16,528 nucleotides of DNA from Chthoniobacteraceae bacterium (lineage in GTDB: Bacteria > Verrucomicrobiota > Verrucomicrobiia > Chthoniobacterales > Chthoniobacteraceae): positions 1 through 16,528 of the forward strand of contig JANNWY010000262.1 in assembly GCA_031409335.1 (NCBI GenBank), given 5' to 3'. Within the stretch, counting starts at the first letter, position 1, and every line of letters starts with the position of its first letter. The position numbers were made by a program, and so were the translations under genes. Under the pieces are notes generated by a model. It had not been told where the DNA came from, did not search any database, and saw only the letters and a program-made list of their open reading frames with translations. Below, piece by piece: positions 1,958-16,528 of the stretch.

Positions 1958-2350
1958 CTAAGTGGAAACCGCCTTCTCCGCCATGACTTGATCGATGATA
2001 GTGATCAGGACTTTCGGATTCAGCGGCTTCGCCAGAAAGCGCATGCCGCCGCGCATGCTGATGCGGTCGCCGGCTTCCTGAGCTGAAATCAGCGACGTGA
2101 AAAACAGAATCGGTGTGCCGCGCAGACTCGGGTCCGCGTTCACGTCCCGCGCCACTTCCCCGCCATCCTGCCCGGGCATATCCACGTCGAGGAGGATGAG
2201 TTCCGGCCGGAATTCGCGCGCGGCGGCGAGCACGTTGCCGGGACGATTCTCGGTGCGGACCTCGAAGCGTTTGGTCTTTTCAAGAAAGAGGCGAACCAGG
2301 TCCGAAAGATTCGGATCATCGTCCACCGCGAGAATGCGGGTCTTATTCAT
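1958..2350 (-). CDS. Stand-alone response regulator receiver (CheY-like), 130 aa
   Basis: Start moved to MNKTRILAVDDD (ATG at 2350). Motifs ILAVDDD, LILLDVDMP, FFTS, AKP; no output domain. Confidence 0.9.
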   Translation of the reverse strand: MNKTRILAVDDDPNLSDLVRLFLEKTKRFEVRTENRPGNVLAAAREFRPELILLDVDMPGQDGGEVARDVNADPSLRGTPILFFTSLISAQEAGDRISMRGGMRFLAKPLNPKVLITIIDQVMAEKAVST

Positions 2351-2429
2351 GTCAGGGTTGTCTAGGTGTGCGGACCCATATTTAGCAGGATCGGTGCTCA
2401 CCCCTCCCCGTCTTTCACGAAATGGCCCG

Positions 2430-3359
2430 CTACGACTTTCGCGACGACCGGCCGGAACTGTTGGCAAGCAGTGCCGCCTTCGCCGCCGCGAGTTCCTTCC
2501 GCTGGGCTGGACTCACTTTCGGATAGTGCAATTTCAGCGACGCAAGCGCGTCGATCACTGCCGCCGCGACCACGACCCGCGTGAACCACTTGTTGTCCGC
2601 CGGCACCACGTACCACGGGCAATCCTCCGTCGCCGTCTCGCGAATCGTCTCCTCGTACGCCGTCATATAGTCATCCCAGAAGGTACGTTCCTTCACGTCG
2701 TTCACCGAAAATTTCCAGTGCTTCTCCGGCTCATCCAGCCGCTCGAGAAAGCGCTTCTTTTGCTCCGCTTTCGACACATGCAGGAAAAATTTCCGCACGA
2801 TCGTGCCATTGCGCGTGAGGTAACGCTCGAACGCCCGGATGTCCTGAAACCGCTCGTCCCAAATGTGTTTCGTCACGCATTGCTCCGGCAATTTCTGCCC
2901 GGCGAGAAACTCGGGATGCACCCGCACCACCAGCGTTTCCTCGTAGTAGCTGCGATTGAAAATGCCGATGCGCCCGCGCTCGGGCAGTTGCTTCATGCAC
3001 CGCCAGAGAAAGTCGTGATCGAGATCCTCCGAAGTCGGCGCCTTGAAAGACGAAACATGGCACCCCTGCGGATTGATGCCCGACATCACGTGCTTGATCG
3101 TCCCATCCTTCCCCGCCGCATCCATCGCCTGAAAGATGAGCAGCACCGACCAGCGATCCTGCGCAAACAGCGTATCCTGCAACTCCGCCAGCGCCTGCAC
3201 GCCCGCATCCAGCGCCTCCTCCGCGTGCGGTTTGTCGTCGTCGGTAAAATCCTGCGTGTCATCGGGGTCGAAGTCCTTGAGACGGAATTTGTTTCCGTTT
3301 GTGACTCGGTAAGGCTTGGCGATTCGATGAGCGGCTTCGATGGTCCGAGCGGGTTTCAT
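2430..3359 (-). CDS. ppk2: Polyphosphate kinase 2 family, single domain (probably class III nucleotide phosphotransferase)
   Basis: Walker [23 protein letters not shown]...HDFLWR, Walker [35 protein letters not shown]. Start taken at MKPARTI (ATG 3359). Confidence 0.93.
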
Positions 3360-3430
3360 GGCGCAGGTCTTCGGATTTCGGTGAAGAAAAAGCAATCGCT
3401 GAGACGCGGGCGAAGGCTGCCCGGCAGCAG

Positions 3431-3460
3431 AAAGGGCGACGGCATCGCCGTCGCCCTTTT
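3431..3460. terminator. Rho-independent terminator (likely for the PEP-CTERM gene; possibly bidirectional)
   Basis: Perfect 13-bp inverted repeat AAAGGGCGACGGC-atc-GCCGTCGCCCTTT with short T-runs on both strands, about 25 bp downstream of the stop at 3485. Confidence 0.8.
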
Positions 3461-3484
3461 GGCAAATCCGATCCGCGAGATGGC

Positions 3485-4201
3485 TCAGGTCATCCGGCGG
3501 CGGCGGGCAAAAAGCAACGCACTGCCCGACAGCAGGCCGATGATGGCAGTGGGCTCCGGAATCGGTGCTGGAACGGCCTCATCTGAAACAATGAAGTTAT
3601 CCACGCGACTCGTGCCGGCAGCGGCGACGGTGCCACCGCCAGCCGATGTCGTGGATGTGTTCACGAGTCTGAAAACGACGTCTGTATTGTTACTGAGCGC
3701 CGCAACGCCGGTGAGATCGAAACTGTAAAATGCCGCCGGAACGGGCGTGAGTGAGCCCCAGGAATTCGGCACCGCGTTTGCAAGGACGGCATAAGCAGCC
3801 TGGGTCGTGAATGGGCCAGCAACGCCGGTTGAGCTGTATTGCAGCGCGAAATCCCGCGGTCCCGTGCCACTCGAAATCTGCGAGAAGCTGACGAAGATTG
3901 GCGTGAAGCCGACGGTGCTGACCAGAAACTGGAAATAATCGCCGCCCGCCCACTCATTCACGCTGAAAGCATCTGTCGAACCGTTTCCGACAGGCGTGCT
4001 CCAATCAGCAAGCGCACTCAAGTGGGTGCCCCCGGCGTTGCCCGTTCCGACATTGGGCGAAATGGGATTCGGATAAGTTGCCATGTTGGCGGCATCGGCC
4101 GGAATGGGCGATTCAAAGGTCCAACTGGCGATGGTCACCGCAAACGATGACGAACCGAGCAAGGCGATGGCGCCGCCGGCGAGTGAGAGTTTTTTTAACA
4201 T
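3485..4201 (-). CDS. PEP-CTERM sorting-domain surface protein, 238 aa
   Basis: Signal peptide [21 protein letters not shown] (ATG 4201), Ser/Thr/Gly-rich beta-type body, C-terminus [25 protein letters not shown] (PEP, transmembrane helix, Arg cluster). Confidence 0.92.
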
Positions 4202-4474
4202 ATTTTTGTCCCTGAAGTAGATGTTGATTGAAGGTGTGGCTTCCCTCACCGGAGGAGTCCGGCGGCTCGAACGAGAAGACCGTTCTCGGCAGCATCACTC
4301 AAGTTGTTTTTTGTGATGATTGCGCGACATCGGACCTCAGTGTTTGTCCGACAAGGCGGGCAACAAGTGAACCATGCGCGAGCGCCGCGCCGCCGCCTTG
4401 TAACTGCGCAGGTTGCCGTCGAACTCTGCTGCGCCGGTGCGTTTCGGAGCGCCGGTATCCGCGTTGTCGAAAAC

Positions 4475-6420: not shown

Positions 6421-6581
6421 AGGATTTGGAGCTTTTGAACTTGGTTAGTTTGGCAGCGCGGGAAAGTCCACTCGCGAAACGGCAGCCGCTTGCGGAAGGC
6501 TGCGCCGGAGCAGGTTTCCGCAGCGCTGCGTCCGGCTGGCCGGAAAGCTGCTACCTACCGTTTTTCGAAAATCCAACTTCA

Positions 6582-7595
6582 ATGACACATCGCTTTCTCA
6601 ACACAGTCCGACTGAAACCCGTTCTCGTCACGCTCATCGCCGCAGGTTGCGAGCTGGCTCTGGCAAATGAATCGCGGGCGGCAGTCGATTTCGTCTTCAA
6701 CTTCACCGATGCCGCTGGCGTTGGCTTCAACGCCGCCGGGCAAGTCGGTGCCGATCGTCGCGCCGGTCTGGATATCGCCGCGGGAGTGCTCGAAAACTAC
6801 CTCTCGAGCTACACTGCCACGATCACCATCGACGTGAATGGCAGCGTGACGAATGACACGACGCTGGCCTCCGCGTCGTCGAATTTCAACGCCGCTTTTC
6901 CCGGCAATGGCTTCGGCACGCAAGGGGATGTGATGATCAAAATCCTCGGCGGAGTTGATCCAAATCCGGCGGCTGCTGATGGTGGCGTGAGTTGGAATTT
7001 CGAGGATTTCAACTGGGAATCCGGCAGCGATTTCCAAGCAGGCGAACTCGATCTGCAATCCACCGCGACGCACGAACTCGCCCACGCGCTCGGCTTTGCC
7101 TCGAGTATTTCGCAAACAGGCACAGGCATCTGGGGCGACCCGGCGGGCTCGCCCACGGGGTGGTTTCCGTTTGATCGATTCGTCGCGGATTCCACATCCG
7201 CGATCATCGACGGCGGCACGTTTTCGCTCAGTCTCACGCGCTGGAATAGCGCCTCCGTCGGCGGCACGGGCAGCAATGGCTTATTCTTCAACGGCTTGAA
7301 CGCGATGCTCGCGAACGGCGGGAATGTAGTGCCGCTCTATGCGCCGACGACTTGGAGCAACGGCAGCTCGGGCTCGCATCTCGATACCGATTTTTTCACC
7401 GGCGCGAACGCTCAAATGATGAACCACTCCGGCGTCGCGCAAGGCCTCGATATTCGTGCGCTCAGCCCGATCGAAATCGGCGTGTTGAAAGACATCGGCT
7501 ATTCGTTGGTCGCCGTGCCAGAGCCGGGTGCAGCGACGCTCTGGTTGCTCGGTTCCGCGTTCGCGTTCGCGTTCCGTCGCCGTCGGTCGGCGTAG
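6582..7595 (+). CDS. PEP-CTERM surface protein with HEXXH zinc-metalloprotease motif, 337 aa
   Basis: Start MTHRFLN (ATG 6582) with signal-like N-terminus; THELAHALGF, downstream SGSHLD...QMMNH and LSPIEIGVLKDIGY; C-terminal VPEPGAATLWLLGSAFAFAFRRRRSA. Confidence 0.88.
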   Translation: MTHRFLNTVRLKPVLVTLIAAGCELALANESRAAVDFVFNFTDAAGVGFNAAGQVGADRRAGLDIAAGVLENYLSSYTATITIDVNGSVTNDTTLASASSNFNAAFPGNGFGTQGDVMIKILGGVDPNPAAADGGVSWNFEDFNWESGSDFQAGELDLQSTATHELAHALGFASSISQTGTGIWGDPAGSPTGWFPFDRFVADSTSAIIDGGTFSLSLTRWNSASVGGTGSNGLFFNGLNAMLANGGNVVPLYAPTTWSNGSSGSHLDTDFFTGANAQMMNHSGVAQGLDIRALSPIEIGVLKDIGYSLVAVPEPGAATLWLLGSAFAFAFRRRRSA

Positions 7596-7651
7596 TTCGC
7601 GGCAGGCTTTGACCAGCGGTCCGGCGTGTGTGAAATACACGCATCGAATCC

Positions 7652-8461
7652 GTGGTGAAACGCCTCCTTCCATCTCTCGTCTGCGCGATTGCCGCGGTGG
7701 CAAACGCAGCGGCTCCGATCGATCTGAAGGACGCGCTAGATCGTCCGGACCTGCATTGCGAACTGTCGATGTCCGCGGTGGATCGGATGACGTTCGTTGT
7801 CACGAATTCCGGCGCGGAAGCGGTGAGCATCGCGATTCCCGCTGGCGCGATTGGCGCCGGTGCGGAAGGCACGGCAAAAGTAATCGTGCTGCAAACTGCG
7901 ACACTCGACATCGCGCCTTTGGCCACGGGCGAAGCGCTGCTTCCGGTGGCATTGCTTTCGTCCAAACTTTCGCCTCCGGGGAAAGCGGTGCGCTTTTCCG
8001 AAGAGTCCGAACCGCGGCTGGAGCGATTGCTCAAGCGGCTCGCGAGCGAGAAGGATGTGCCGCGCGCGACTGCGCAGTTCGCGATTTTCGGCATTCTCGA
8101 GGACATGAATTTCGGGGCGTGGCAGAAGTTTCTCGCCGCCCATCGCGGGCCGGAGCCGGACCCGCAGCCGCATCCGAATCCCGTCGAAATCGTGCAGGCC
8201 ATTGACGCGCTCGGCCTGATTCGCGAGGTCGCGCCGGAAAGGAAGTTCGCGCTCATGGAAGACGGCGAATTGAAGTTGCGCGCGCTCCGCAATCCGTGGT
8301 GCCGGGCAAAGGCGATGCAGCTTTACGGCATCAAGGTGACCGACGACGGTAGCGAATTTGGCCTGCCAAATATCAGCCAGCTTTTGCACACCAAACCCGG
8401 CGACAATTGTCCGGTCTGCCGCAATCGCGAGGAGATGAAAAAAGGCGCGAGCGATTTCTGA
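7652..8461 (+). CDS. Secreted hypothetical protein with C-terminal CxxC
   Basis: GTG start (7652 or 7655), signal peptide KRLLPSLVCAIAAVANA, host-like codon usage, fills the gap between two clear genes, ends HTKPGDNCPVCR. Confidence 0.75.
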   Translation: MVKRLLPSLVCAIAAVANAAAPIDLKDALDRPDLHCELSMSAVDRMTFVVTNSGAEAVSIAIPAGAIGAGAEGTAKVIVLQTATLDIAPLATGEALLPVALLSSKLSPPGKAVRFSEESEPRLERLLKRLASEKDVPRATAQFAIFGILEDMNFGAWQKFLAAHRGPEPDPQPHPNPVEIVQAIDALGLIREVAPERKFALMEDGELKLRALRNPWCRAKAMQLYGIKVTDDGSEFGLPNISQLLHTKPGDNCPVCRNREEMKKGASDF

Positions 8462-8469
8462 GCGCAGGC

Positions 8470-9471
8470 TCACGCGCGCCGGGCCCAGCGCAGCTTTGCG
8501 CTGCTGGCGCGGGAGTTCGCGCGGGTTTCCTCCGCGGTCGGGCGCAGGATGTCGGGTGAAACGGCGCTGTAGATTCCGTCCCGCAGTCCGCCCTGAAATG
8601 CTTTTTTCACGCGGCGATCTTCGCCGGAGTGAAAGCTGAGGATCGCGGCGCGACCACCGGGTTTCAGGCACAGCGGAAGCTGGCGCAGGAATGTTTCGAG
8701 CGCGCTGAATTCATCGTTCACCGCAATGCGGAGTGCCTGAAAAACGCGGCGCACCGTGGCGTCGTCGCCGCCTGCGCCGCGGATGGTTTTCGCGAGGCCC
8801 ACAGTCGTCGTGCGTGGCGATTGAAGAATCGCGTGGGCGAGGGGAAGCGCGTTCGGTTCGTCCGCGTTTTCGGCGAGCAATGTGGCGAGACGCTTTTCAT
8901 CGAGCGTCGTGAGCAGCGCGCTGGCAGGCTGGCCGCGTTCGGGATTCATGCGGAGATCGAGCGGGCCGTCGTGTTTGAAGGTGAAGCCGCGCTCCGGGTT
9001 GTCGATCTGCATCGAGGAAAGGCCGAGGTCGGCGAAGATCGCGTCAGCAGGCTCGCCGAGGATTTTCGGGAGGCCGGCGTAGTTCGTCCGGTGCGCGGTG
9101 AATGTCTCCTGCCCGAAGCCGAGGGCGCGAAAACGGGCTTCGGTTTTCGGGAGTTCGATGGGATCAATGTCGAGGCCAATGAGCCGCCCGCCGGGCTGAA
9201 TCGCCGCGAGCAATTCCCGCGCGTGCCCGCCGTATCCGAGCGTGCAATCGACGACCAGATTCCCCGGTTTCGGCGCAAACACTTCCAGTATTTCGCGCAG
9301 CATGATCGGGCGATGCGTGCCCGCCGGCGTCTTGCCGCTGGCGAGCACCTTTGCCACATCCTCCGCGTAGCGCTCCGGCGCGTGCTCCTTGTATTTCTCG
9401 GAGAAACGGCGGGGATTTTTTCCGGCATACCGCGGACGGCGCTTGGGTTTGTCGGGCGCGGGATCGCTCAT
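8470..9471 (-). CDS. rsmH: 16S rRNA m4C1402 methyltransferase RsmH/MraW, N-terminally extended form, 333 aa
   Basis: True start MSDPAPDK (ATG 9471) inside the 770-aa track ORF. Motifs HRPIML.E, VDCTLGYGGH, DLGLSSMQID..RGF...DGPLDLRM, RVFQALRIAVN.E, ILSFHSGEDRRVK, NSRASSAKLR. Confidence 0.92.
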   Translation of the reverse strand: MSDPAPDKPKRRPRYAGKNPRRFSEKYKEHAPERYAEDVAKVLASGKTPAGTHRPIMLREILEVFAPKPGNLVVDCTLGYGGHARELLAAIQPGGRLIGLDIDPIELPKTEARFRALGFGQETFTAHRTNYAGLPKILGEPADAIFADLGLSSMQIDNPERGFTFKHDGPLDLRMNPERGQPASALLTTLDEKRLATLLAENADEPNALPLAHAILQSPRTTTVGLAKTIRGAGGDDATVRRVFQALRIAVNDEFSALETFLRQLPLCLKPGGRAAILSFHSGEDRRVKKAFQGGLRDGIYSAVSPDILRPTAEETRANSRASSAKLRWARRA

Positions 9472-9579
9472 TGGCAGGACGTTAAGAAGCCATTGCCGGA
9501 AGGCGAAACTAATAAACGGCGGCGTGTGCGGTTCCCATTTTGCTTTGAAACATCGGAAGGATTCTCTCCTTTCCAGCCA

Positions 9580-10794
9580 ATGCCCACCGCATCTGCCCAG
9601 CCATCCAGCCGCCCCAATCTGCAAGCCGCCGCCATCGCGATGCTGCTCGCCGCGGCAGGCGTGGCCGCCGGTCTCTCCTACTGTGGGAAAGTCGAGGAAC
9701 AGTATATCCACGCGCTCGCACCCGAGTTTTCCGAGGAGAAATTGCAGGGCGCAGTCTTGCAGCGCGAGGCCTTCCGGCAGCCGAATCTGCTGATGATGTA
9801 TGGCAGCTCGGAGCTCGCGAAGGAGATGCCAAACAATCCCGTCCAGTTCTTTAAGGACTACCCGACCGGCTTCACCGTTTTCCCCGTCGGCAAACCCGGC
9901 GCGACTTCGCTGAACATCCTGCAAAAGCTCGCCGCCGTCGGCTCCGAAGCGCGCGGGCGCAAGCTCGCGTATTCGATCTCGCCCGGCTGGTTTCTTTCCG
10001 AAGAGACGGACGTGAAATACTACGAGGGAAACTTCTCCACGATGCAGGCGATGGCATTGGTTTTCAGCGGAGAACTCAGCATCGGGCTCAAGCGCGACAT
10101 CGCGTGCCGGATGCTGGAATTTCCCACGACGACGGACAATGCGTGGCTGCTGGATTTCGCCGTGCGCAGGCTCGTCGGGGATTCGCGGCTCGATCGCATC
10201 CTGTACGCCGCGGTGGTTCCGCTCGGGAAATTGCAAAACGCGATCGGTCGCGGCCAGGATCATTTTGAAGCCGTGCTCCACATTTTGGATGAGGACGAAA
10301 AGTTGAACCCCGTCACCAAGTCCGTCCTGCGCAGGCTGAATTGGGCGGACATCCTGAAAGCCGCGGGCAAGGCGGTGAACGCGAAAGCGCTCAGTGCGAA
10401 GCAGAGTGAAGTCGCGAAGCGCAAGCAGACCGCGGATCGCGCCAAGACGATCGAACGCGCGAGAAAATTTCGCAGAGGGCTGGAAAGATCCGACGAGTGG
10501 ACGGACTTCCGGCTGCTGCTGCGGACATGTGAGGAACTCGGCGCGAAGCCGCTCTTTCTCTGCATGCCGATCGAGGACATCCGGCTCGAAGTCTATGGGC
10601 TCGGAAAGGAAAGTCGGCTCGCTTTTGTCCAGCGGCTGCAGGAGATGGCGGGAGAGTTTCACTATCCGATGATGCTCTTCCGCGAGCATGAGAGTGATCC
10701 GGCGTTCCTCTTCGATTTTCAGGATCATCTCAGCGGCCAGGGCTGGCTCTTTTACAACAAAGCCCTCGACGATTTTTTTCACGGTCGCATTTAG
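9580..10794 (+). CDS. dltD: DltD, membrane-anchored SGNH-like D-alanyl transferase, 404 aa
   Basis: Start MPTASAQ (ATG 9580); one N-terminal hydrophobic helix; YGSSEL, VGKPGATSL, SISPGWF, GNFS..Q, EW.DF.LLL, C-terminal DHLSGQGW; first gene of a dlt cluster. Confidence 0.88.
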   Translation: MPTASAQPSSRPNLQAAAIAMLLAAAGVAAGLSYCGKVEEQYIHALAPEFSEEKLQGAVLQREAFRQPNLLMMYGSSELAKEMPNNPVQFFKDYPTGFTVFPVGKPGATSLNILQKLAAVGSEARGRKLAYSISPGWFLSEETDVKYYEGNFSTMQAMALVFSGELSIGLKRDIACRMLEFPTTTDNAWLLDFAVRRLVGDSRLDRILYAAVVPLGKLQNAIGRGQDHFEAVLHILDEDEKLNPVTKSVLRRLNWADILKAAGKAVNAKALSAKQSEVAKRKQTADRAKTIERARKFRRGLERSDEWTDFRLLLRTCEELGAKPLFLCMPIEDIRLEVYGLGKESRLAFVQRLQEMAGEFHYPMMLFREHESDPAFLFDFQDHLSGQGWLFYNKALDDFFHGRI

Positions 10795-10839
10795 AACCTT
10801 TCACTTTCCCCATCGCCCATTTAGTCACCGTCACCCCGT

Positions 10840-11088
10840 ATGATTGCCGAAAAGACCGACCAGATCCTCGACTTGCTCGCCGCCGTGGCCGAAACCGACG
10901 AAGTCCGCACGAACCCCGAACTCGCGCTGTACGATCTCCAGATTTTGGATTCGATGAAAACCGTGGAGTTGATCGTGGCGCTCGGGCGCGATGTCGGCGT
11001 CGAGGTTTCGCCCGCCGAGTTCGAGCGCGAAGCGTGGGCCACGCCCGCGAAATTCGTCGCGGACATCCTGCGCCGCCTCGCCGCCTGA
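10840..11088 (+). CDS. dltC: D-alanyl carrier protein DltC
   Basis: 82-aa acidic ACP-like protein; L.LYD..ILDSMKTVELIV (phosphopantetheine Ser), EF.RE.W.TP.K. Confidence 0.93.
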   Translation: MIAEKTDQILDLLAAVAETDEVRTNPELALYDLQILDSMKTVELIVALGRDVGVEVSPAEFEREAWATPAKFVADILRRLAA

Positions 11089-11091
11089 AGT

Positions 11092-11235
11092 ATGCTGGAT
11101 GCATGGAAAGCCGCCCATCCGCGCACCCGGCTCATCGCGCGCTCGCTTTACTATTTTGCCATCATCGCCGGCCTGATCGCGCTTTACGGCCGCGGCGATT
11201 TCGCGACGCCGACCTTTGTCTATCAAGGATTCTGA
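11092..11235 (+). CDS. dltX: DltX small membrane protein, 47 aa (missed by ORF track)
   Basis: MLDAWKAAHPRTRLIARSLYYFAIIAGLIALYGRGDFATPTFVYQGF*: one transmembrane helix, LY-G linker, terminal F-x-Y-x-x-F. Starts 3 bp after dltC and ends 4 bp before dltA. Confidence 0.88.
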   Translation: MLDAWKAAHPRTRLIARSLYYFAIIAGLIALYGRGDFATPTFVYQGF

Positions 11236-11239
11236 GCCG

Positions 11240-12697
11240 ATGGACTTGATCGATCGCATCGATCGCTGGGGACGCGAAACACCCGATCGCGCCGCGCACA
11301 TCAGCGGCGATCGCACGCTCACTTATCGCGAACTTTGCACGCGTTCGGACGCGCTGGCCGCGTGGATTGAAAATCATCTCGGCGAGAATCGCGGCCCCGT
11401 CGCCGTGCTCGGACACAAGGAGCCGGAAATGCTCATCGCGTTTCTCGCGGTCGTAAAATCGGGACGCGCCTACGTCCCGATCGACACGTCATTGCCACCG
11501 CAGCGCATCGAGCGAATCGTGCAGACCGCTGCCGCCGCGCTCACCCTCACGCCGGCGCGCGTCGCGGAACTCGCCGGTGACACCGCTGCCGCGCAATGCC
11601 GACGCGTCGGGAACGACGACCCATTTTACATCATCTTCACATCGGGCAGCACTGGCGAGCCAAAGGGCGTCGTCATCACCCTCGCGAATCTCACCGCGTT
11701 CGTGGATTGGATGATCGGCGAGCAGCGATTCGCCGAAGCCACGGAGACCTTCCTGAATCAAGCGCCCTACTCGTTCGACCTTTCGGTGATGGACCTTTAC
11801 CTCGCGCTCGTCACCGGCGGCACGCTTTTCAGCATCACAAAAGACGACGTCGCAAATCTGAAGATGCTGTTTGAAAAGCTCGGACGCTCCGGCATCACGA
11901 CGTGGGTTTCCACGCCGTCATTTGCCCAGATGTGTTTGATCGAGCGCAGCTTCAATCCAACGATGCTGCCCGGCCTGCGGCGTTTCCTTTTCTGCGGCGA
12001 AACGCTCGCGCCCGAAACCGCCGCGCAACTGCTCGATCGCTTCGCGCAGGCCGAAGTCTGGAATACCTACGGACCCACCGAAGCCACCGTCGCCACCAGC
12101 TCCGTCCGCATCGATCGCGACGTGATCGCGAAACACCACACGCTACCCATCGGCTACACCATGCCCGGCACCCGCCTGCTCATTTGCGATGAAAACGGCG
12201 CGGCAATGCCCGAAGGCCAGCGCGGCGAACTCGTCATCGCCGGCCCAAACGTGAGCCCCGGCTACTTCCACCGCGACGATCTCACCGCGAACGCCTTCTC
12301 CACGCGCGACGGCGAGCGCGCATACCGCACCGGCGATTGGGCGCGCGAAACGGACGGGCTGTTTTTTTGCGACGGACGCATGGACGGGCAGATCAAAATG
12401 TTCGGCTACCGCATCGAACTCGGCGACCTCGAAGCCAATCTCCGCGCCCTCCCGCAAATCGCCGACGCCGTCGTCCTGCCCGTCCGCAAGCACGAAAGGA
12501 TCGAATCCCTCGCCGCATTCGTAATCCTCTCCGTGGAAAAAACCGGCACCGATTTCGAGATGGCCGCGCTGCTAAAAAAGGAACTCGCCGACCGCCTCCC
12601 CGCCTACATGCTCCCGCGGAAATTTCACTTCCTCGACGCCTTCCCGATGACGCCGAACGGCAAGGCCGACCGGCGAATGCTGGCGGAAAGGCTTTAG
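11240..12697 (+). CDS. dltA: D-alanine--D-alanyl carrier protein ligase DltA, 485 aa
   Basis: ATG 11240. YIIFTSGSTGEPKGV, NQAPYSFDLSVMDLY, WVSTPSF, FLFCGETL (DltA-type Cys), NTYGPTEATVA, YRTGD, GRMD.QIK..GYRIEL, TPNGKADR. Confidence 0.95.
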   Translation: MDLIDRIDRWGRETPDRAAHISGDRTLTYRELCTRSDALAAWIENHLGENRGPVAVLGHKEPEMLIAFLAVVKSGRAYVPIDTSLPPQRIERIVQTAAAALTLTPARVAELAGDTAAAQCRRVGNDDPFYIIFTSGSTGEPKGVVITLANLTAFVDWMIGEQRFAEATETFLNQAPYSFDLSVMDLYLALVTGGTLFSITKDDVANLKMLFEKLGRSGITTWVSTPSFAQMCLIERSFNPTMLPGLRRFLFCGETLAPETAAQLLDRFAQAEVWNTYGPTEATVATSSVRIDRDVIAKHHTLPIGYTMPGTRLLICDENGAAMPEGQRGELVIAGPNVSPGYFHRDDLTANAFSTRDGERAYRTGDWARETDGLFFCDGRMDGQIKMFGYRIELGDLEANLRALPQIADAVVLPVRKHERIESLAAFVILSVEKTGTDFEMAALLKKELADRLPAYMLPRKFHFLDAFPMTPNGKADRRMLAERL

Positions 12698-12769
12698 GCG
12701 CGACTTGCCGAGTGAGGAAGATTGCAATCGTGGAACGCGGCTCGTTACATGCGCAGCCTTCCCGCTGAG

Positions 12770-12787
12770 GCGGGAGAATTCTCCCGC
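12770..12787. repeat. Perfect 18-bp palindrome in the dltA-dltB spacer
   Basis: GCGGGAGAATTCTCCCGC equals its own reverse complement. Confidence 0.85.
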
Positions 12788-12829
12788 TGCCATGCCTGAT
12801 CGTTTTTCCATGCGCCCCCGCTTCGCGGA

Positions 12830-13996
12830 ATGATTCCGTTCTCCGATTTTCACTATTTCGGACTGCTGCTCTACATCGTCCTCCCGACGATCGCGCTGGG
12901 ACTCTTCGGGCGCGCGAACCGGGCGTGGACGTTGCTCGCGACGCTGCTCGTGGCGATCCTGAATTTCAGCGACGATACGCCGATGCGCCCGGACGTTTTT
13001 GTCCGCGAAATCTGGATCGCGCTCGGCTTTGCGATCTATCAAGGCGGGCTGGCTGCGGCGCTGCTTCGCTGGAAATCGACGCCGCTTTTCCGCATCGCGC
13101 TCGGGCTCTCGATCCTGCCGCTGGCTGCCGCGAAATTCCTGCCGCTCATTTCGCCGGGCACGCTGTTTGGATTTCTCGGCATCTCCTACGTCACGTTCCG
13201 GTCGCTCGATGTGATCTTCAGCATTCAGGACGGCGTCGTCAAAACGCTCTCGCCGGGCAGCTATTTCGCGTTTGTCTTTTTCTGGCCGACGGTTTCATCC
13301 GGCCCGATCGATCGCTACCGCCGCTTCGTGCAAGACCTCGACCGCACGCGCACGCGCGCGGATTTTCTCGATGATCTCGATTTTGCGGTGGAGCGCGTCT
13401 TCCGCGGATTTCTCTACAAGTTTCTCATCGCCGCTCTGCTCAACAAATACTGCGTGGACCCGCTAGAAGCCCGTGCCGACGCGCTCTCTACGCTGCTCTA
13501 CATGTATAGCTACAGCGTGTATTTATTCTTCGATTTTGCCGGCTACAGCGCGTTTGCGATCGGCTGTGGGCGGCTGTTTGGAATCCGGGTGCCGGAGAAT
13601 TTCGATCTGCCATTCCTCTCGCGAAACATTCGCGATTTTTGGAACCGCTGGCATATCAGCCTGTCGTTTTGGTTTCGCGACCATATCTACATGCGCTTCC
13701 TCATCGCGGCGGGGAAGGGGAAGTGGTTCAAGGGAAAGCACACGGCTTCCTACCTCGGGCTGTGGCTCACGTTCGGGCTGATGGGTGTGTGGCATGGCCT
13801 CGAGGCGCGTTACCTTATCTACGGCGCCTATCACGCCACGCTGCTGTGCGGCTACGATGCCTTCGCGCGCTGGAACAAGCAAACCAAACGCTGGCCCGAC
13901 ACGCGCGTCATGCGCTTCGTGAATATCGCGATCACCTTCCACGCCGTTTGCTTCGGGCTGCTAATTTTTTCGGGTAAAATCACGCCGCATCACTGA
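12830..13996 (+). CDS. dltB: DltB, MBOAT-family D-alanyl transferase
   Basis: Multi-pass membrane protein; GFLGISYVTFR, SSGPIDRYRRF, GFLYKF, YLFFDFAGYS.FAI, NF..PF.S.NI.DFWNRWHISLSFWFRD.IYMRF, MGVWHG...Y.IYG.YH. Confidence 0.95.
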   Translation: MIPFSDFHYFGLLLYIVLPTIALGLFGRANRAWTLLATLLVAILNFSDDTPMRPDVFVREIWIALGFAIYQGGLAAALLRWKSTPLFRIALGLSILPLAAAKFLPLISPGTLFGFLGISYVTFRSLDVIFSIQDGVVKTLSPGSYFAFVFFWPTVSSGPIDRYRRFVQDLDRTRTRADFLDDLDFAVERVFRGFLYKFLIAALLNKYCVDPLEARADALSTLLYMYSYSVYLFFDFAGYSAFAIGCGRLFGIRVPENFDLPFLSRNIRDFWNRWHISLSFWFRDHIYMRFLIAAGKGKWFKGKHTASYLGLWLTFGLMGVWHGLEARYLIYGAYHATLLCGYDAFARWNKQTKRWPDTRVMRFVNIAITFHAVCFGLLIFSGKITPHH

Positions 13997-14012
13997 CGCT
14001 CGTGAGTGATCC

Positions 14013-14648
14013 ATGCCACGAACGCACTCTCCCATCCCCATCCGCTTCCCCGTTCTTCGCGGCAACGAACCGGCCGTGGTGACTCTCGACTTTGCCGGCC
14101 ACGAGGATGTGATCGCTACGACGCACTGGCAAGTGCCTCGCAGTCTGAAGCGCGACGCGGCCACGCGCACTCGCGCCGCGGATGCGCGGGAGTTCGCCCT
14201 CTTCGCCGCCAAACGCTGGCGTCACTACCGCGACAGCGGCATCGCCGCTCGCAGCCTGCCTGAACTCCGGCGGATGATCTCCTCCGACCCGCAGGGCGAG
14301 TATTGTTTCCATCTCAAGCTCACCGCCCCGTGGTTCCCGCACAGCCTCGGCGGCGCGATGGTTCGCCGCACCTGGTGCCACCATCTCATCGTGGACTTTC
14401 TCTTCGTGCATCCGCGCATCTGCGGGAAGATCGAGCCCGTGAAAGGCACCGGGGTCGGTATCCTGCATGGCATCTGTCTCATTGCCCGCACCCTCCGGTG
14501 CAAGCGCGTCTGGGGCGAGGCCACGCGAGACTCCGCGTCGTTCTACGAACGGCAACTCGGTCGTGCCATCGAAGACAGTTTCACGCTCGATGTTAGTGAG
14601 ATCGCGTTCTTTGCCGACCAGATTGAAAAGGAAAGCCGTCGGGCTTGA
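14013..14648 (+). CDS. Hypothetical protein, probable GNAT-fold acyltransferase
   Basis: C-terminal half LIVDFLFVHP...KGTGVGIL...RVWGEAT..SASFYE resembles GNAT acyl-CoA-binding motifs A and B; starts 16 bp after dltB. Confidence 0.6.
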   Translation: MPRTHSPIPIRFPVLRGNEPAVVTLDFAGHEDVIATTHWQVPRSLKRDAATRTRAADAREFALFAAKRWRHYRDSGIAARSLPELRRMISSDPQGEYCFHLKLTAPWFPHSLGGAMVRRTWCHHLIVDFLFVHPRICGKIEPVKGTGVGILHGICLIARTLRCKRVWGEATRDSASFYERQLGRAIEDSFTLDVSEIAFFADQIEKESRRA

Positions 14649-14673
14649 ACGCTCTGCCACTTCACACTACCCT
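14645..14673 (+). promoter_or_regulatory. Putative sigma70-type promoter for a leaderless transcript
   Basis: TTGAAC (14645-14650), 17-bp spacer, TACCCT (14668-14673), then 6 bp to ATG 14680. Confidence 0.5.
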
Positions 14674-14679
14674 GCGCCC

Positions 14680-14874
14680 ATGTCGAAGAACACCTCCGCG
14701 CCCAAGATGACCAAGGCCGAGTTGGTCGCTCATCTCAACAAGTTGTTCGCCGCCGAGGAATACTTCACCGGCGTGCTCGGCAACCGTCACCACTTCACCC
14801 TCGCCAAGCCGTCCCGGAGAAAGAGAGTTCCCGGCGGCCGAACCGCGCGGCAACGGGCGAAGACCTCTGGTTGA
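14680..14874 (+). CDS. Small basic hypothetical protein, 64 aa
   Basis: MSKNTSAPKMTKAELVAHLNKLFAAEEYFTGVLGNRHHFTLAKPSRRKRVPGGRTARQRAKTSG; strong G/C third-position bias; promoter-like sequence upstream. C-terminal part of track ORF 14467..14874. Confidence 0.6.
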   Translation: MSKNTSAPKMTKAELVAHLNKLFAAEEYFTGVLGNRHHFTLAKPSRRKRVPGGRTARQRAKTSG

Positions 14875-14974
14875 CGATCCCGGTGCCGCGAACCGCTTCC
14901 GCTCCCAGGCGGTTGGATCCGCCAGCGGGATCGTGCCAGGGAGCCAAGCCCGCAGACACTCCCTCCGTGGGCAA

Positions 14975-15037
14975 AAAGCCGTCAGCGTGTGTTCCAAAGC
15001 TGTCAGCATTTTTTCCAAACCCTTCCGCGTTTGCGGC
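14975..15037. repeat. Degenerate 21-bp tandem repeat
   Basis: AAAGCCGTCAGCGTGTGTTCC / AAAGCTGTCAGCATTTTTTCC / AAACCCTTCCGCGTTTGCGGC. Confidence 0.55.
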
Positions 15038-15241
15038 AGACGGTGCGGACTTCCCGCCGGACAGGGTGCCATTTGTGTGATTGAGCCGACCGGTCCCGAA
15101 GAAGTTTGCGTCTTCCAAAGTTTTTCCCGAAACTTTCTGCCGTACCGCTCCCAGACGGTGTGTTTTCGATCGCGCGCGACTTCGGCATGATGCCCGGTCG
15201 AGCGGGCTTGAAGACGGCGCACTTCAGCTCTCGACCGTTCT

Positions 15242-16528
15242 ATGAAACTCGCCCATCTGTTCGTCCCCGCGCTCTTCCTCGTCTTCATCGTCTCGCTTTC
15301 CGCGGCCACGCCGCCGGGGAAGACGCAACAGCTCACCTCGCCGGATCAGGTGCCCGAGGGGCTGGCGAAGTCCGACTGGCACAGCATCCGCGCTGCTTAC
15401 GAAGCGGGGCGGCACGCTTTCCAGCCGATCGAAGGCGGATGGCAGGCGCGCAATCCGGGGCAGCAATGGACCACGAAATTCGACGGACGCGGTTTCGTGG
15501 CCGAGCCGAAGGATGGCGCGTGGCAGTGGGGGCTGGAACTGAAGGGCTACGGCTTCCCCGGCGCGGAGCGCGCCGTCGGCGGCGTGCCGGCGGTGAAGGC
15601 CGAGGGCCAGCGGCTCACCTACGGCTGGGATGCGGCGGTGCAGGAGTGGTGGGTGAATGATGCGCGCGGGCTGGAGCATGGCTTCACGGTGCGGGAGAGG
15701 CCGGGGGGCGCTCCGTCTCTCAACTCTCAACCCTCAACTCTCAACTTTTCCGTCGCCGTCCGCGGCACCCTCAGCCCTCAAATCACCGCCGATGCCCAAG
15801 GCGTGGAGTTCCGCGACCCCGCCGGAGCCACGGTGCTCACCTACGCCGGGCTCAAGGTCTGGGATGCGGATGGCAAGCCCCTCGCCTCCCGTTTCGCCCC
15901 ACTCGACACCCGGCACCCGACGCTCGTCACTCTCGTCGTGGAAGAGCGCGGCGCGCGCTACCCACTGACCATCGACCCCATCGCCCAGCAAGCCTATCTC
16001 AAGCCCGCCGCCGTCGGCACCTCGCAGGCAGGGGACGTTTTCGGCATCTCGGTGGCCGTCTCGGGCGACACGGTGGTCGTCGGGGCACCCTATGAGGGTA
16101 GCAGCACGACGGGCGTGAACAGCACGCCCGACGAGGGCGCCATCTATGCCGGCGCGGCCTACGTTTTCGTGCGAAGCGGGACGACGTGGATGCAGCAGGC
16201 GTATCTCAAACCCGCCGCCGTCGGCACTACGCAGGCGGGGGACTGGTTCGGCTGGTCGGTGGCCGTCTCGGGCGACACGGTGGTCGTCGGAGCACCCTAT
16301 GAGGGCAGCAGCACGACAGGCGTAAACAGCACGCCCGACGAGAACGCCACCGCTTCCGGCGCGGCCTTTTTTTTCACGCGCAGCGGTACGACGTGGACGC
16401 AGCAAGCCTATCTCAAACCCGCCGCCGTCGGCACCTCGCAGGCAGGGGACGTTTTCGGCATCTCGGTGGCCGTCTCGGGCGACACGGTGGTCGTCGGCGC
16501 ATTCAAGGAGGACAGCAGCACGACGGGC
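15242..16528 (+). CDS. Secreted FG-GAP (integrin-alpha beta-propeller-like) repeat protein, partial
   Basis: Manual translation from ATG 15242: signal peptide MKLAHLFVPALFLVFIVSLSA, N-terminal domain (EWWVND.RGLEHGF, YAGLKVWDADG, YPLTIDP), then repeats QQAYLK...GD.FG.SVAVSGDTVVVGAP.E...GAAYVF.RSGTTW. Open to the window end; absent from the ORF track. Confidence 0.92.
   Translation, partial: MKLAHLFVPALFLVFIVSLSAATPPGKTQQLTSPDQVPEGLAKSDWHSIRAAYEAGRHAFQPIEGGWQARNPGQQWTTKFDGRGFVAEPKDGAWQWGLELKGYGFPGAERAVGGVPAVKAEGQRLTYGWDAAVQEWWVNDARGLEHGFTVRERPGGAPSLNSQPSTLNFSVAVRGTLSPQITADAQGVEFRDPAGATVLTYAGLKVWDADGKPLASRFAPLDTRHPTLVTLVVEERGARYPLTIDPIAQQAYLKPAAVGTSQAGDVFGISVAVSGDTVVVGAPYEGSSTTGVNSTPDEGAIYAGAAYVFVRSGTTWMQQAYLKPAAVGTTQAGDWFGWSVAVSGDTVVVGAPYEGSSTTGVNSTPDENATASGAAFFFTRSGTTWTQQAYLKPAAVGTSQAGDVFGISVAVSGDTVVVGAFKEDSSTTG
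15717..15744 (+). repeat. Heptanucleotide tandem repeat (x4) inside CDS
   Basis: CTCTCAA CTCTCAA CCCTCAA CTCTCAA, encoding SLNSQPSTLN. Confidence 0.85.
15902..15929 (+). repeat. Degenerate heptanucleotide tandem repeat (x4) inside CDS
   Basis: CTCGACA CCCGGCA CCCGACG CTCGTCA, encoding LDTRHPTLVT. Confidence 0.55.
15986..16528 (+). repeat. 207-bp (69-aa) tandem FG-GAP repeats, about 2.6 copies visible
   Basis: Units start at 15986, 16193 and 16400 with CAGCA(A/G)GC(C/G)TATCTCAA. Confidence 0.95.

Follow-up and report, generated by a model that had tools for sequence, protein, structure and literature searches.

The stretch of DNA analyzed here, hereafter called the window, is the whole of contig C262 (16,528 bases), which belongs to the metagenome-assembled genome (MAG) of a freshwater-sediment bacterium of the family Chthoniobacteraceae (Verrucomicrobiota). 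On its plus strand, positions 9580-13996 carry the uninterrupted genes dltD, dltC, dltX, dltA and dltB, arranged head to tail and each scoring above the curated cut-off of its family. They encode the same five proteins as the Dlt (DltXABCD) system of Bacillota, here in a bacterium equipped for the synthesis of lipopolysaccharide (LPS). A first-pass annotation made from the sequence alone had listed the five genes at these positions together with their signature motifs (SFDLSVMD/FCGE in DltA, DS in DltC, RWH and WHG in DltB, GSSE in DltD, FxYxxF in DltX), and all of these were recovered.

Gene products and proposed relay

The first gene, dltD (9580-10794), encodes a membrane-anchored SGNH-like D-alanyl transferase (TIGR04092, 164.6 bits, cut-off 150; PF04914, 176.2 bits) and is followed by dltC (10840-11088), which codes for a D-alanyl carrier protein (NF003464, 77.5 bits, cut-off 68; TIGR01688, 71.7 bits, cut-off 52.35), and by dltX (11092-11235), which specifies a membrane microprotein of 47 residues (PF12459, 26.3 bits, cut-off 25). 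The operon is completed by dltA (11240-12697; TIGR01734, 560.3 bits, cut-off 559.85; NF003417, 579.7 bits, cut-off 476) and by dltB (12830-13996), coding for a membrane D-alanyl transferase of the MBOAT family (TIGR04091, 434.7 bits, cut-off 375). The longest dltA frame opens at a TTG codon within dltX (11216), but the ATG at 11240, four bases past the dltX stop, is the likelier start because the alignment to DltA of Bacillus cereus begins at that methionine.

DltA aligned over its full length to the B. cereus enzyme (3fcc, 490 bits) and was identical to it in the blocks SFDLSVMD, FLFCGE and PTEATVA as well as at the aligned positions Asp197, Cys269 and Val301, residues that Du et al. (2008) reportedly tied to the selection of D-alanine (D-Ala). 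Hence we infer D-Ala as the substrate. A Dlt-like aminoacylation system carrying another cargo, such as D-serine, glycine or L-alanine, could be read from the narrow margin by which DltA clears its equivalog model, TIGR01734, but is improbable in view of the full-length match to B. cereus DltA, the identity of the three blocks, which are said to hold the pocket residues, and the comfortable score with the subfamily model NF003417. In DltC, the phosphopantetheine site (LDSM) is present. DltX terminates in FVYQGF, which fits the FxYxxF acyl-shuttle motif, and this motif closes 59 of the 60 DltX homologues of related loci. DltB matched its counterpart from Streptococcus thermophilus (6bug, 232 bits) with the FWNRWH block and WHG aligned.

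The AlphaFold model of DltD (predicted local distance difference test score 94.1) consists of one N-terminal helix (residues 12-46) and a catalytic domain. The enzyme is thus predicted to face the periplasm, in line with the first-pass annotation. When the model was compared with representatives of the PDB by VIA-align, the crystal structures 6pfx_B (Z 33.2, root-mean-square deviation 3.3 Å over 332 residues) and 7dxm_A (Z 31.5) were matched, whereas unrelated SGNH enzymes reached a Z of 10.8 or less. Ser77, located in GSSE, and His383 are invariant across 58 aligned DltD sequences, that is, the window and 57 of the 61 open reading frames (ORFs) found; two over-long frames (L048, L077), a near-copy of L084 (L085) and one frame cut by a contig end (L089) were excluded. 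Four related loci (L037, L054, L058 and L069) carry a tandem pair of dltD paralogues in one operon.

The ratio of nonsynonymous to synonymous substitution rates (dN/dS), determined against two congeners, ranged from 0.07 to 0.20 over all five genes (dltD 0.13, dltC 0.17-0.20, dltX 0.07-0.15, dltA 0.11-0.17, dltB 0.11-0.12), the 47 codons of dltX included. The dlt genes are under purifying selection.

In Bacillota, DltA adenylates D-Ala and loads it onto DltC, DltB moves the D-alanyl group onto the invariant Tyr of the DltX FxYxxF motif, and DltX delivers it to the catalytic Ser of the extracellular DltD, which forms the ester with lipoteichoic acid (LTA) (excerpts of PMC12148441 and PMC5541007). 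By homology, DltA of the window would use ATP to activate D-Ala in the cytoplasm and transfer it to the phosphopantetheine arm of DltC, DltB would pass the D-alanyl group across the inner membrane to the Tyr in the FVYQGF tail of DltX, DltX would hand it on to Ser77 of DltD, and DltD, working at the periplasmic face of the inner membrane, would join it as an ester to a hydroxyl group of the acceptor. The cell would likely benefit from a surface carrying less negative charge and from being shielded against cationic antimicrobials. The operon very probably encodes a working D-alanyl relay.

Host genome and integrity of the contig

The host assembly comprises 7.94 Mb in 326 contigs and was rated 98% complete and 3% contaminated. 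Profile searches of the genome returned LpxC (303.6 bits) and BamA (538.3 bits), and the host is thus diderm by gene content. The best DltB matches in a collection of species-representative genomes (61-72% identity) were titled Chthoniobacteraceae, Chthoniobacter or Verrucomicrobiae MAGs. Both the diderm envelope and the verrucomicrobial origin had been surmised in the first-pass annotation.

In a MAG of 326 contigs with 3% estimated contamination, the operon might be suspected of being an artefact, either of a chimeric or misbinned contig or of a very recent transfer from a Firmicute without any role in the host, and two related loci titled Nitrospirota and Alphaproteobacteria do look misbinned. 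To check the depth, the window was tiled with Logan contigs from four freshwater-sediment metagenome runs of a single study. Across the operon and the sequence on either side of it, word depth stayed flat: run X1, which may be the source sample, gave about 11x and run X2 about 7x. Moreover, the junction between dltD and its upstream neighbor rsmH (about 8470-9330, minus strand) recurs in three of the four congeners (G002, G003, G004), while in the fourth (G001) dltA and dltB are contiguous and rsmH lies on a separate contig. All remaining genes of the window have congener counterparts at 77-88% nucleotide identity. The GC content at third codon positions of dltD, dltA and dltB (0.77-0.78) is close to the genome median of 0.76, and the codon-usage correlation of the dlt genes (0.75-0.87; genome median 0.81) is likewise host-like, so that the similarity in codon usage noticed at first sight could be substantiated. 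Even depth, junctions shared with congeners and host-like codon usage exclude a chimera or misbinning as far as the data go. Since, in addition, DltB is 61-72% identical to family members and only 40-50% identical to Bacillota, the DltB tree tracks taxonomy (see below), and a closed, single-contig genome of the same order encodes both DltB and LpxC, we consider an artefact highly improbable.

The only depth anomaly in the window is a heptamer repeat at 15716-15746. It consists of about four TCTCAAC-like units within an FG-GAP repeat gene (15242 to the end of the contig), attracts a word depth of 150-690x from other metagenome contigs, and has short matches of 90-100% identity on many congener contigs.

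Distribution and ancestry

Genomes were scored for a DltB above its curated cut-off (TIGR04091). Among the nearest relatives, which included all five genomes of the genus, 13 of 41 were positive, and an even draw from the order yielded 85 positives in 401 genomes, with 46 of 71 in the family. Broken down by family code, the order contained positives in f1 (46/71), f6 (18/30), f14 (9/71), f7 (7/43), f16 (3/17), f5 (2/8) and f8 (2/71) and none in all others. Presence was consistent within genera, with 14/14 and 12/14 genomes in some as opposed to 0/7 and 0/5 elsewhere. An even draw from the phylum, in which this order was represented by only nine genomes and the family by none, returned the window's own genome (1/401) and none of the 400 others.

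Outside the phylum, DltB proteins of 44-57% identity with adjoining dlt genes were found under the titles Isosphaeraceae/Planctomycetota, Anaerolineae/Chloroflexota, Gemmatimonadota, Eisenbacteria and Spirochaetales. In the planctomycete family of locus L036, 17 of 101 genomes were positive. Identity to the Bacillota sampled amounted to 40-50% for DltB and 20-30% for DltD. All five dlt-positive relatives checked, one of them a single-contig genome, encode LpxC, as does the operon-bearing Gemmatimonadaceae genome checked. A search of the dlt-bearing Chloroflexota genome G804 gave no match to LpxC, and none of the three candidates scored in the dlt-bearing planctomycete genome G803 (9.5 Mb, the genome of L036) matched it. 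Among the 80 loci returned by the search there was no proteobacterial dlt sequence, the sole locus titled Alphaproteobacteria nesting inside Udaeobacter.

A DltB tree was computed by a quick search under LG+G4 from 80 rows and two AlgI-like host paralogues as outgroup; an Eisenbacteria row outside the cluster was left out. Alongside the Firmicute homologues, all 50 verrucomicrobial rows formed one clade with a support of 98 in the Shimodaira-Hasegawa-like approximate likelihood ratio test (SH-aLRT), within which Chthoniobacteraceae (99) and Udaeobacter-type rows (99) made up subclades. Planctomycetota were a clade as well (100), and the nine Bacillota rows lay on one side of a branch (90). The tree thus tracks taxonomy. 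We claim no direction of transfer between phyla, because Bacillota are represented by nine best-match rows and the root is unsafe, given that an AlgI-like outgroup joins long branches. The two loci mentioned above, L038 (titled Nitrospirota MAG) and L052 (titled Alphaproteobacteria MAG), fall within the DltB clade of Udaeobacter, whose flanking gene clusters they share, and are therefore probably misbinned verrucomicrobial contigs.

Gene order follows a similar pattern. D-C-X-A-B, as in the window, was observed in 32 of 48 verrucomicrobial loci, most others being cut by contig ends, whereas 7 of 9 planctomycete loci read D-X-A-B-C, 4 of 6 Chloroflexota loci C-D-X-A-B, and Bacilli A-B-C-D or X-A-B-C-D. 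The operon is an old, inherited trait of the order that was lost repeatedly, not a recent import. Incomplete variants were encountered within the Chthoniobacteraceae: L025 and L028 read D-C-X-B, with dltA missing between dltX and dltB, and L018, L026 and L030 encode a DltB of 63-66% identity with no dltA, dltC or dltX within 10 kb.

Candidate acceptors

The first-pass annotation had proposed that the host lacks teichoic acid. Indeed, no TagF-type polymerase (PF04464) was detected in the 98% complete host genome, in which control families did match. This absence in a diderm host rules out classical wall teichoic acid as the acceptor. For an LTA-like polymer the proposal is less secure, as one gene of LtaS-like architecture is present, although its LtaS score is 48.8 against a cut-off of 970 bits; on gene content alone, the host does not qualify as a producer of wall or lipoteichoic acid, but may make an unrecognized polymer. 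OpgG/MdoG, the marker searched for periplasmic glucans, was not found in the host genome.

The LtaS-like gene (G000:C289:8326-10350(-), 674 amino acids) brings in the idea that the acceptor is a teichoic-acid-like glycerol-phosphate polymer or glycolipid made in the periplasm by a membrane-anchored phosphotransferase of the LtaS/OpgB/EptA type, in other words a diderm analogue of LTA that would be D-alanylated by Dlt as in Bacillota. Of the 88 sulfatase-domain matches in the host, this is the one with five hydrophobic segments ahead of the domain. It aligns along the LtaS catalytic domain (NF053595 residues 285-590; PDB 4uop, E 1e-11) and also to LtaP. Sulfatases carry Cys or Ser in the motif C/S-x-P-x-R; the host gene has Thr at this site. 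Arylsulfatase and choline-sulfatase models, however, score higher than LtaS, and the neighbors of the gene, encoding pectate-lyase-like and FG-GAP proteins, are uninformative. In the order, 15 of the 23 genomes that hold an LtaS-like gene are dlt-positive, compared with 88 of 401 overall, but this enrichment is confounded by kinship, the family being 65% dlt-positive anyway. The 401 genomes divide into 15 with both, 8 with the LtaS-like gene only, 73 with dlt only and 305 with neither; as only two candidates per genome were scored, absences of the LtaS-like gene may be overcounted. The 73 and 8 genomes with one but not the other rule out the LtaS-like gene as an obligatory partner of Dlt.

A gene of similar architecture, in which four to five transmembrane segments are joined to a domain of the sulfatase superfamily (PF00884, 140.9 bits), stands beside dlt in five of nine planctomycete loci, among which L033 has it twice, and in two copies in one Gemmatimonadales locus (L080:3-3175). 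In the loci titled Isosphaeraceae (L033, L036, L048, L051, L093), the four to five hydrophobic segments are N-terminal and the gene is located upstream of dltD; the planctomycete protein gave weak EptA/YejM-type matches and has Thr at the Cys/Ser position of C/S-x-P-x-R. This gene was rejected as a partner in the host, whose genome holds no orthologue, the best match showing 25-30% identity in the domain only. Since no orthologue of the LtaS-like gene was seen in 73 of the 88 dlt-positive members of the order, an LTA-like acceptor appears unlikely.

For further clues, the ORFs of 81 sources (the window and 80 loci) were compared all against all by BLAST and clustered. Besides dlt, the 21 Chthoniobacteraceae loci have no gene family in common. 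In 6 of them, dltB is followed by a convergent PHP-domain gene, but the downstream ORF of the window is unrelated to it, and it was discarded as a candidate for a conserved neighbor.

The window also contains two PEP-CTERM genes, at 3485-4249 on the minus strand (TIGR02595, 21.4 bits, cut-off 16) and at 6426-7595 on the plus strand (PF07589, 24.6 bits, cut-off 20.7), and four exosortase matches occur in the host genome. The first-pass annotation had recognized both genes correctly and had counted glycans of PEP-CTERM proteins among the conceivable acceptors. In a broader form, the acceptor would be a surface protein or its glycan, as suggested for the dra locus of Bordetella, whose acceptor, going by the title of Taneja 2013, is reportedly protease-susceptible, which makes a protein acceptor conceivable. 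PEP-CTERM systems are widespread in Verrucomicrobiota, whereas DltB was found in none of the 400 other members of the phylum sampled, and in none of the 21 Chthoniobacteraceae loci are the PEP-CTERM genes of the window neighbors of dlt; the link drawn earlier thus reflects an accidental adjacency. The excerpt of PMC9410548 and the reference title describe the Bordetella acceptor as a constituent of the outer membrane that is sensitive to protease, but every characterized DltD acts on the hydroxyl group of a polyol or glycan, as far as the excerpt of PMC12148441 goes. We regard a protein acceptor as quite unlikely.

Our preferred interpretation, to which we assign a probability of roughly 0.6, is that this LPS-bearing Verrucomicrobium has an intact and selected Dlt operon, which is predicted to esterify D-Ala onto a non-teichoic envelope acceptor at the periplasmic face of the inner membrane; the likeliest candidate is an anionic glycan linked to a lipid, for instance LPS or its precursors. 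An LPS-type acceptor is favored because there is no conserved neighbor, 73 of 88 dlt-positive relatives showed no LtaS-like gene, and LpxC was found in 5 of 5 dlt-positive relatives checked. LPS has also been proposed as the acceptor for Dickeya (excerpt of PMC5541007).

Several observations weigh against this interpretation. The specific assignment to LPS or a related lipid-linked glycan was reached by elimination only and is tentative, falling short of even odds. Closely related operons occur in Chloroflexota without LpxC (G804), and LPS can thus not be the acceptor everywhere. The protease-susceptible Bordetella acceptor and the possible overcounting of LtaS-like absences point in the same direction. 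DltA exceeds its equivalog cut-off by merely 0.45 bits. In DltD, the window reads D-F-Q-D-H, with Asp at -4 and -1 of the catalytic His, and non-Bacillota proteins have D-x-x-x-H where those of Bacillota have D-x-x-H, so that the conserved Asp and the His are set apart by one residue more; the Asp is missing from Udaeobacter-type rows, and no Asp near His383 is invariant across the 58 sequences. Furthermore, DltD is the least conserved component, its identity to the window being 58-66% for some family loci and 36-40% for others, whereas DltA and DltB stay 58-75% identical within the family and DltC, too, varies far less, suggesting that acceptors may differ among relatives. Finally, no listed RNA run carries the region 8400-14100. 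The split of DltD within the family into two identity classes may reflect the tracking of different acceptors.

Tests of neighbors, of an LTA-like polymer and of other phyla did not narrow down the acceptor. What is left after LPS, an LTA-like polymer and proteins is an exopolysaccharide or something else. On a more speculative note, which we think unlikely, Chthoniobacterales (among them Candidatus Udaeobacter, a genus very abundant in soil), Isosphaeraceae, Gemmatimonadota and further phyla of the environment might make an undescribed D-alanylated anionic envelope polymer that takes the functional place of teichoic acid in a diderm envelope; if so, Dlt would have long served bacteria of soils and sediments widely as a means of tuning charge, and would not have originated in Gram-positives and passed to a handful of pathogens.

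Comparison with known systems

Compared with DltXABCD of Bacillota, the window encodes, apart from the differing Asp spacing in DltD, the same catalytic residues, the same FxYxxF motif of DltX and a DltD of the same fold (Z 33.2), but its host is diderm, has LpxC and BamA and shows no TagF-type polymerase, and the genes are ordered D-C-X-A-B instead of X-A-B-C-D. Dlt genes in an LPS-bearing bacterium have a precedent in dltBAC and dltD of Dickeya dadantii (also Pectobacterium and Photorhabdus), where, however, dltD is separate, while all five genes including dltX are united in one operon here, in a different phylum. In Dickeya, dltBAC and dltD were induced in aphids, and a dltB mutant was polymyxin-sensitive, 99% of cells being killed; the substrate was stated to be unknown (excerpt of PMC3544676). 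The dltD mutant retained its resistance (excerpt of PMC5541007). Similarly, the dra locus of Bordetella pertussis is a Dlt-type locus in a Gram-negative, though in a betaproteobacterial pathogen, and adds D-Ala to an outer membrane component yet to be identified (excerpt of PMC9410548). Among these Gram-negative loci, a contribution to resistance against cationic antimicrobial peptides is known for Dickeya and Bordetella only.

In diderms, PatA/PatB, which O-acetylate peptidoglycan, and the systems for acetylation of alginate and cellulose likewise combine a membrane MBOAT protein with an SGNH partner in the periplasm and a hexapeptide that shuttles the acyl group on its Tyr (excerpt of PMC12148441). 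Relays of the PatA/PatB type use acyl-CoA and have the hexapeptide fused to the MBOAT protein, whereas the window provides a separate DltX, the carrier DltC and the adenylating DltA; it operates on the same principle but is not a member of the acyl-CoA-dependent MBOAT-SGNH subfamily (PatA/PatB, AlgI/AlgJ/AlgX). Two AlgI-like MBOAT paralogues in the host scored 154 bits (G000:C170:166752-167591) and 142 bits (G000:C57:48477-49265) with the DltB model (cut-off 375), and the former sits about 22 kb from an exosortase gene (C170:144211). In Vibrio cholerae AlmEFG, a DltA-like ligase and a DltC-like carrier supply an amino acid, glycine, to LPS. AlmG is an acyltransferase acting on lipid A at the cytoplasmic face, and the system has no DltB, DltX or DltD, in contrast to the full trans-membrane relay of the window.

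A literature search found nothing on Dlt in Chthoniobacterales, Udaeobacter or Planctomycetes, the top-ranked papers for the taxon names being mostly community surveys, in which the one mention of dlt was the name of an Escherichia coli strain. A DltB annotation is mentioned for the Akkermansia phylogroup AmIV (excerpt of PMC8262928), and in excerpts of a review on bacterial surfaces from 2026, Dlt appears only under teichoic acids. The first-pass annotation was borne out as regards publications on this lineage, but overstated the novelty of the locus: Dlt in Gram-negatives has already been described and the operon is a common inherited trait of the order. We are dealing with a known machinery in a new and widespread host lineage, a new host group rather than a new system, and the diderm acceptor was already a recognized open question. 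The locus is therefore less surprising than the first-pass annotation suggested. What is added here is the soundness of the contig, an inherited and selected operon across Chthoniobacterales that recurs in other environmental phyla, the lack of PEP-CTERM linkage, and a partial, non-obligatory association with an LtaS-like gene.

The question of the diderm Dlt target, raised by the Dickeya and Bordetella reports, consequently reaches beyond a few pathogens. About a fifth of the sampled Chthoniobacterales and about two thirds of the Chthoniobacteraceae have the complete relay as an inherited and selected trait, and it is also present in the 17 of 101 genomes of the planctomycete family and in LpxC-bearing Gemmatimonadaceae. 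If the acceptor were found in any of these groups, it would define a new way in which bacteria abundant in soil and sediment modify their envelope, and would be relevant to how they tolerate cationic antibiotics and peptides.

Flanking genes and additional observations

The promoter of the operon is presumed to lie in the intergenic region between the divergent genes rsmH and dltD (9331-9579). Scans of 9200-14800 were uninformative, with no sigma-70-type promoter found where 1.1 were expected and eight terminator-like sites where 6.9 were expected.

In Udaeobacter-type loci, a divergent sigma-54-type response regulator lies just 5' of dltD, accompanied by a histidine-kinase-like gene and phosphoglucose isomerase, which suggests two-component control of dlt in these loci. 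The regulator cluster comprises 19 loci (L040, L042-L046, L049, L054, L058, L061, L064 and others, also L022 and L070); in the window, no such regulator adjoins dltD. A gene of the beta-lactamase family PF00144 (231.7 bits; AmpH/class C-like) flanks dlt in eight of nine planctomycete loci and three Bacilli loci (L033, L036, L048, L050, L051, L077 and L093, planctomycete; L092, L094 and L095, Bacilli), and no orthologue of it adjoins dlt in the window. This neighbor may correspond to the DltE/FmtA-type D-Ala esterases of Bacillota.

Four ORFs of the window, at 2097-3728 (plus strand), about 7650-8460, 13980-14660 and 14662-15336, gave no Pfam or NCBIfam match, the coding strand being unclear for two of them; the segment 7752-8461 is kept at 70-73% in congeners. 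Elsewhere in the genome, the host encodes a protein arginine kinase of the McsB type (L100:16610-18004, minus strand, on G000:C289; NF002194, 423.8 bits, cut-off 385), an enzyme best known from Bacillota.

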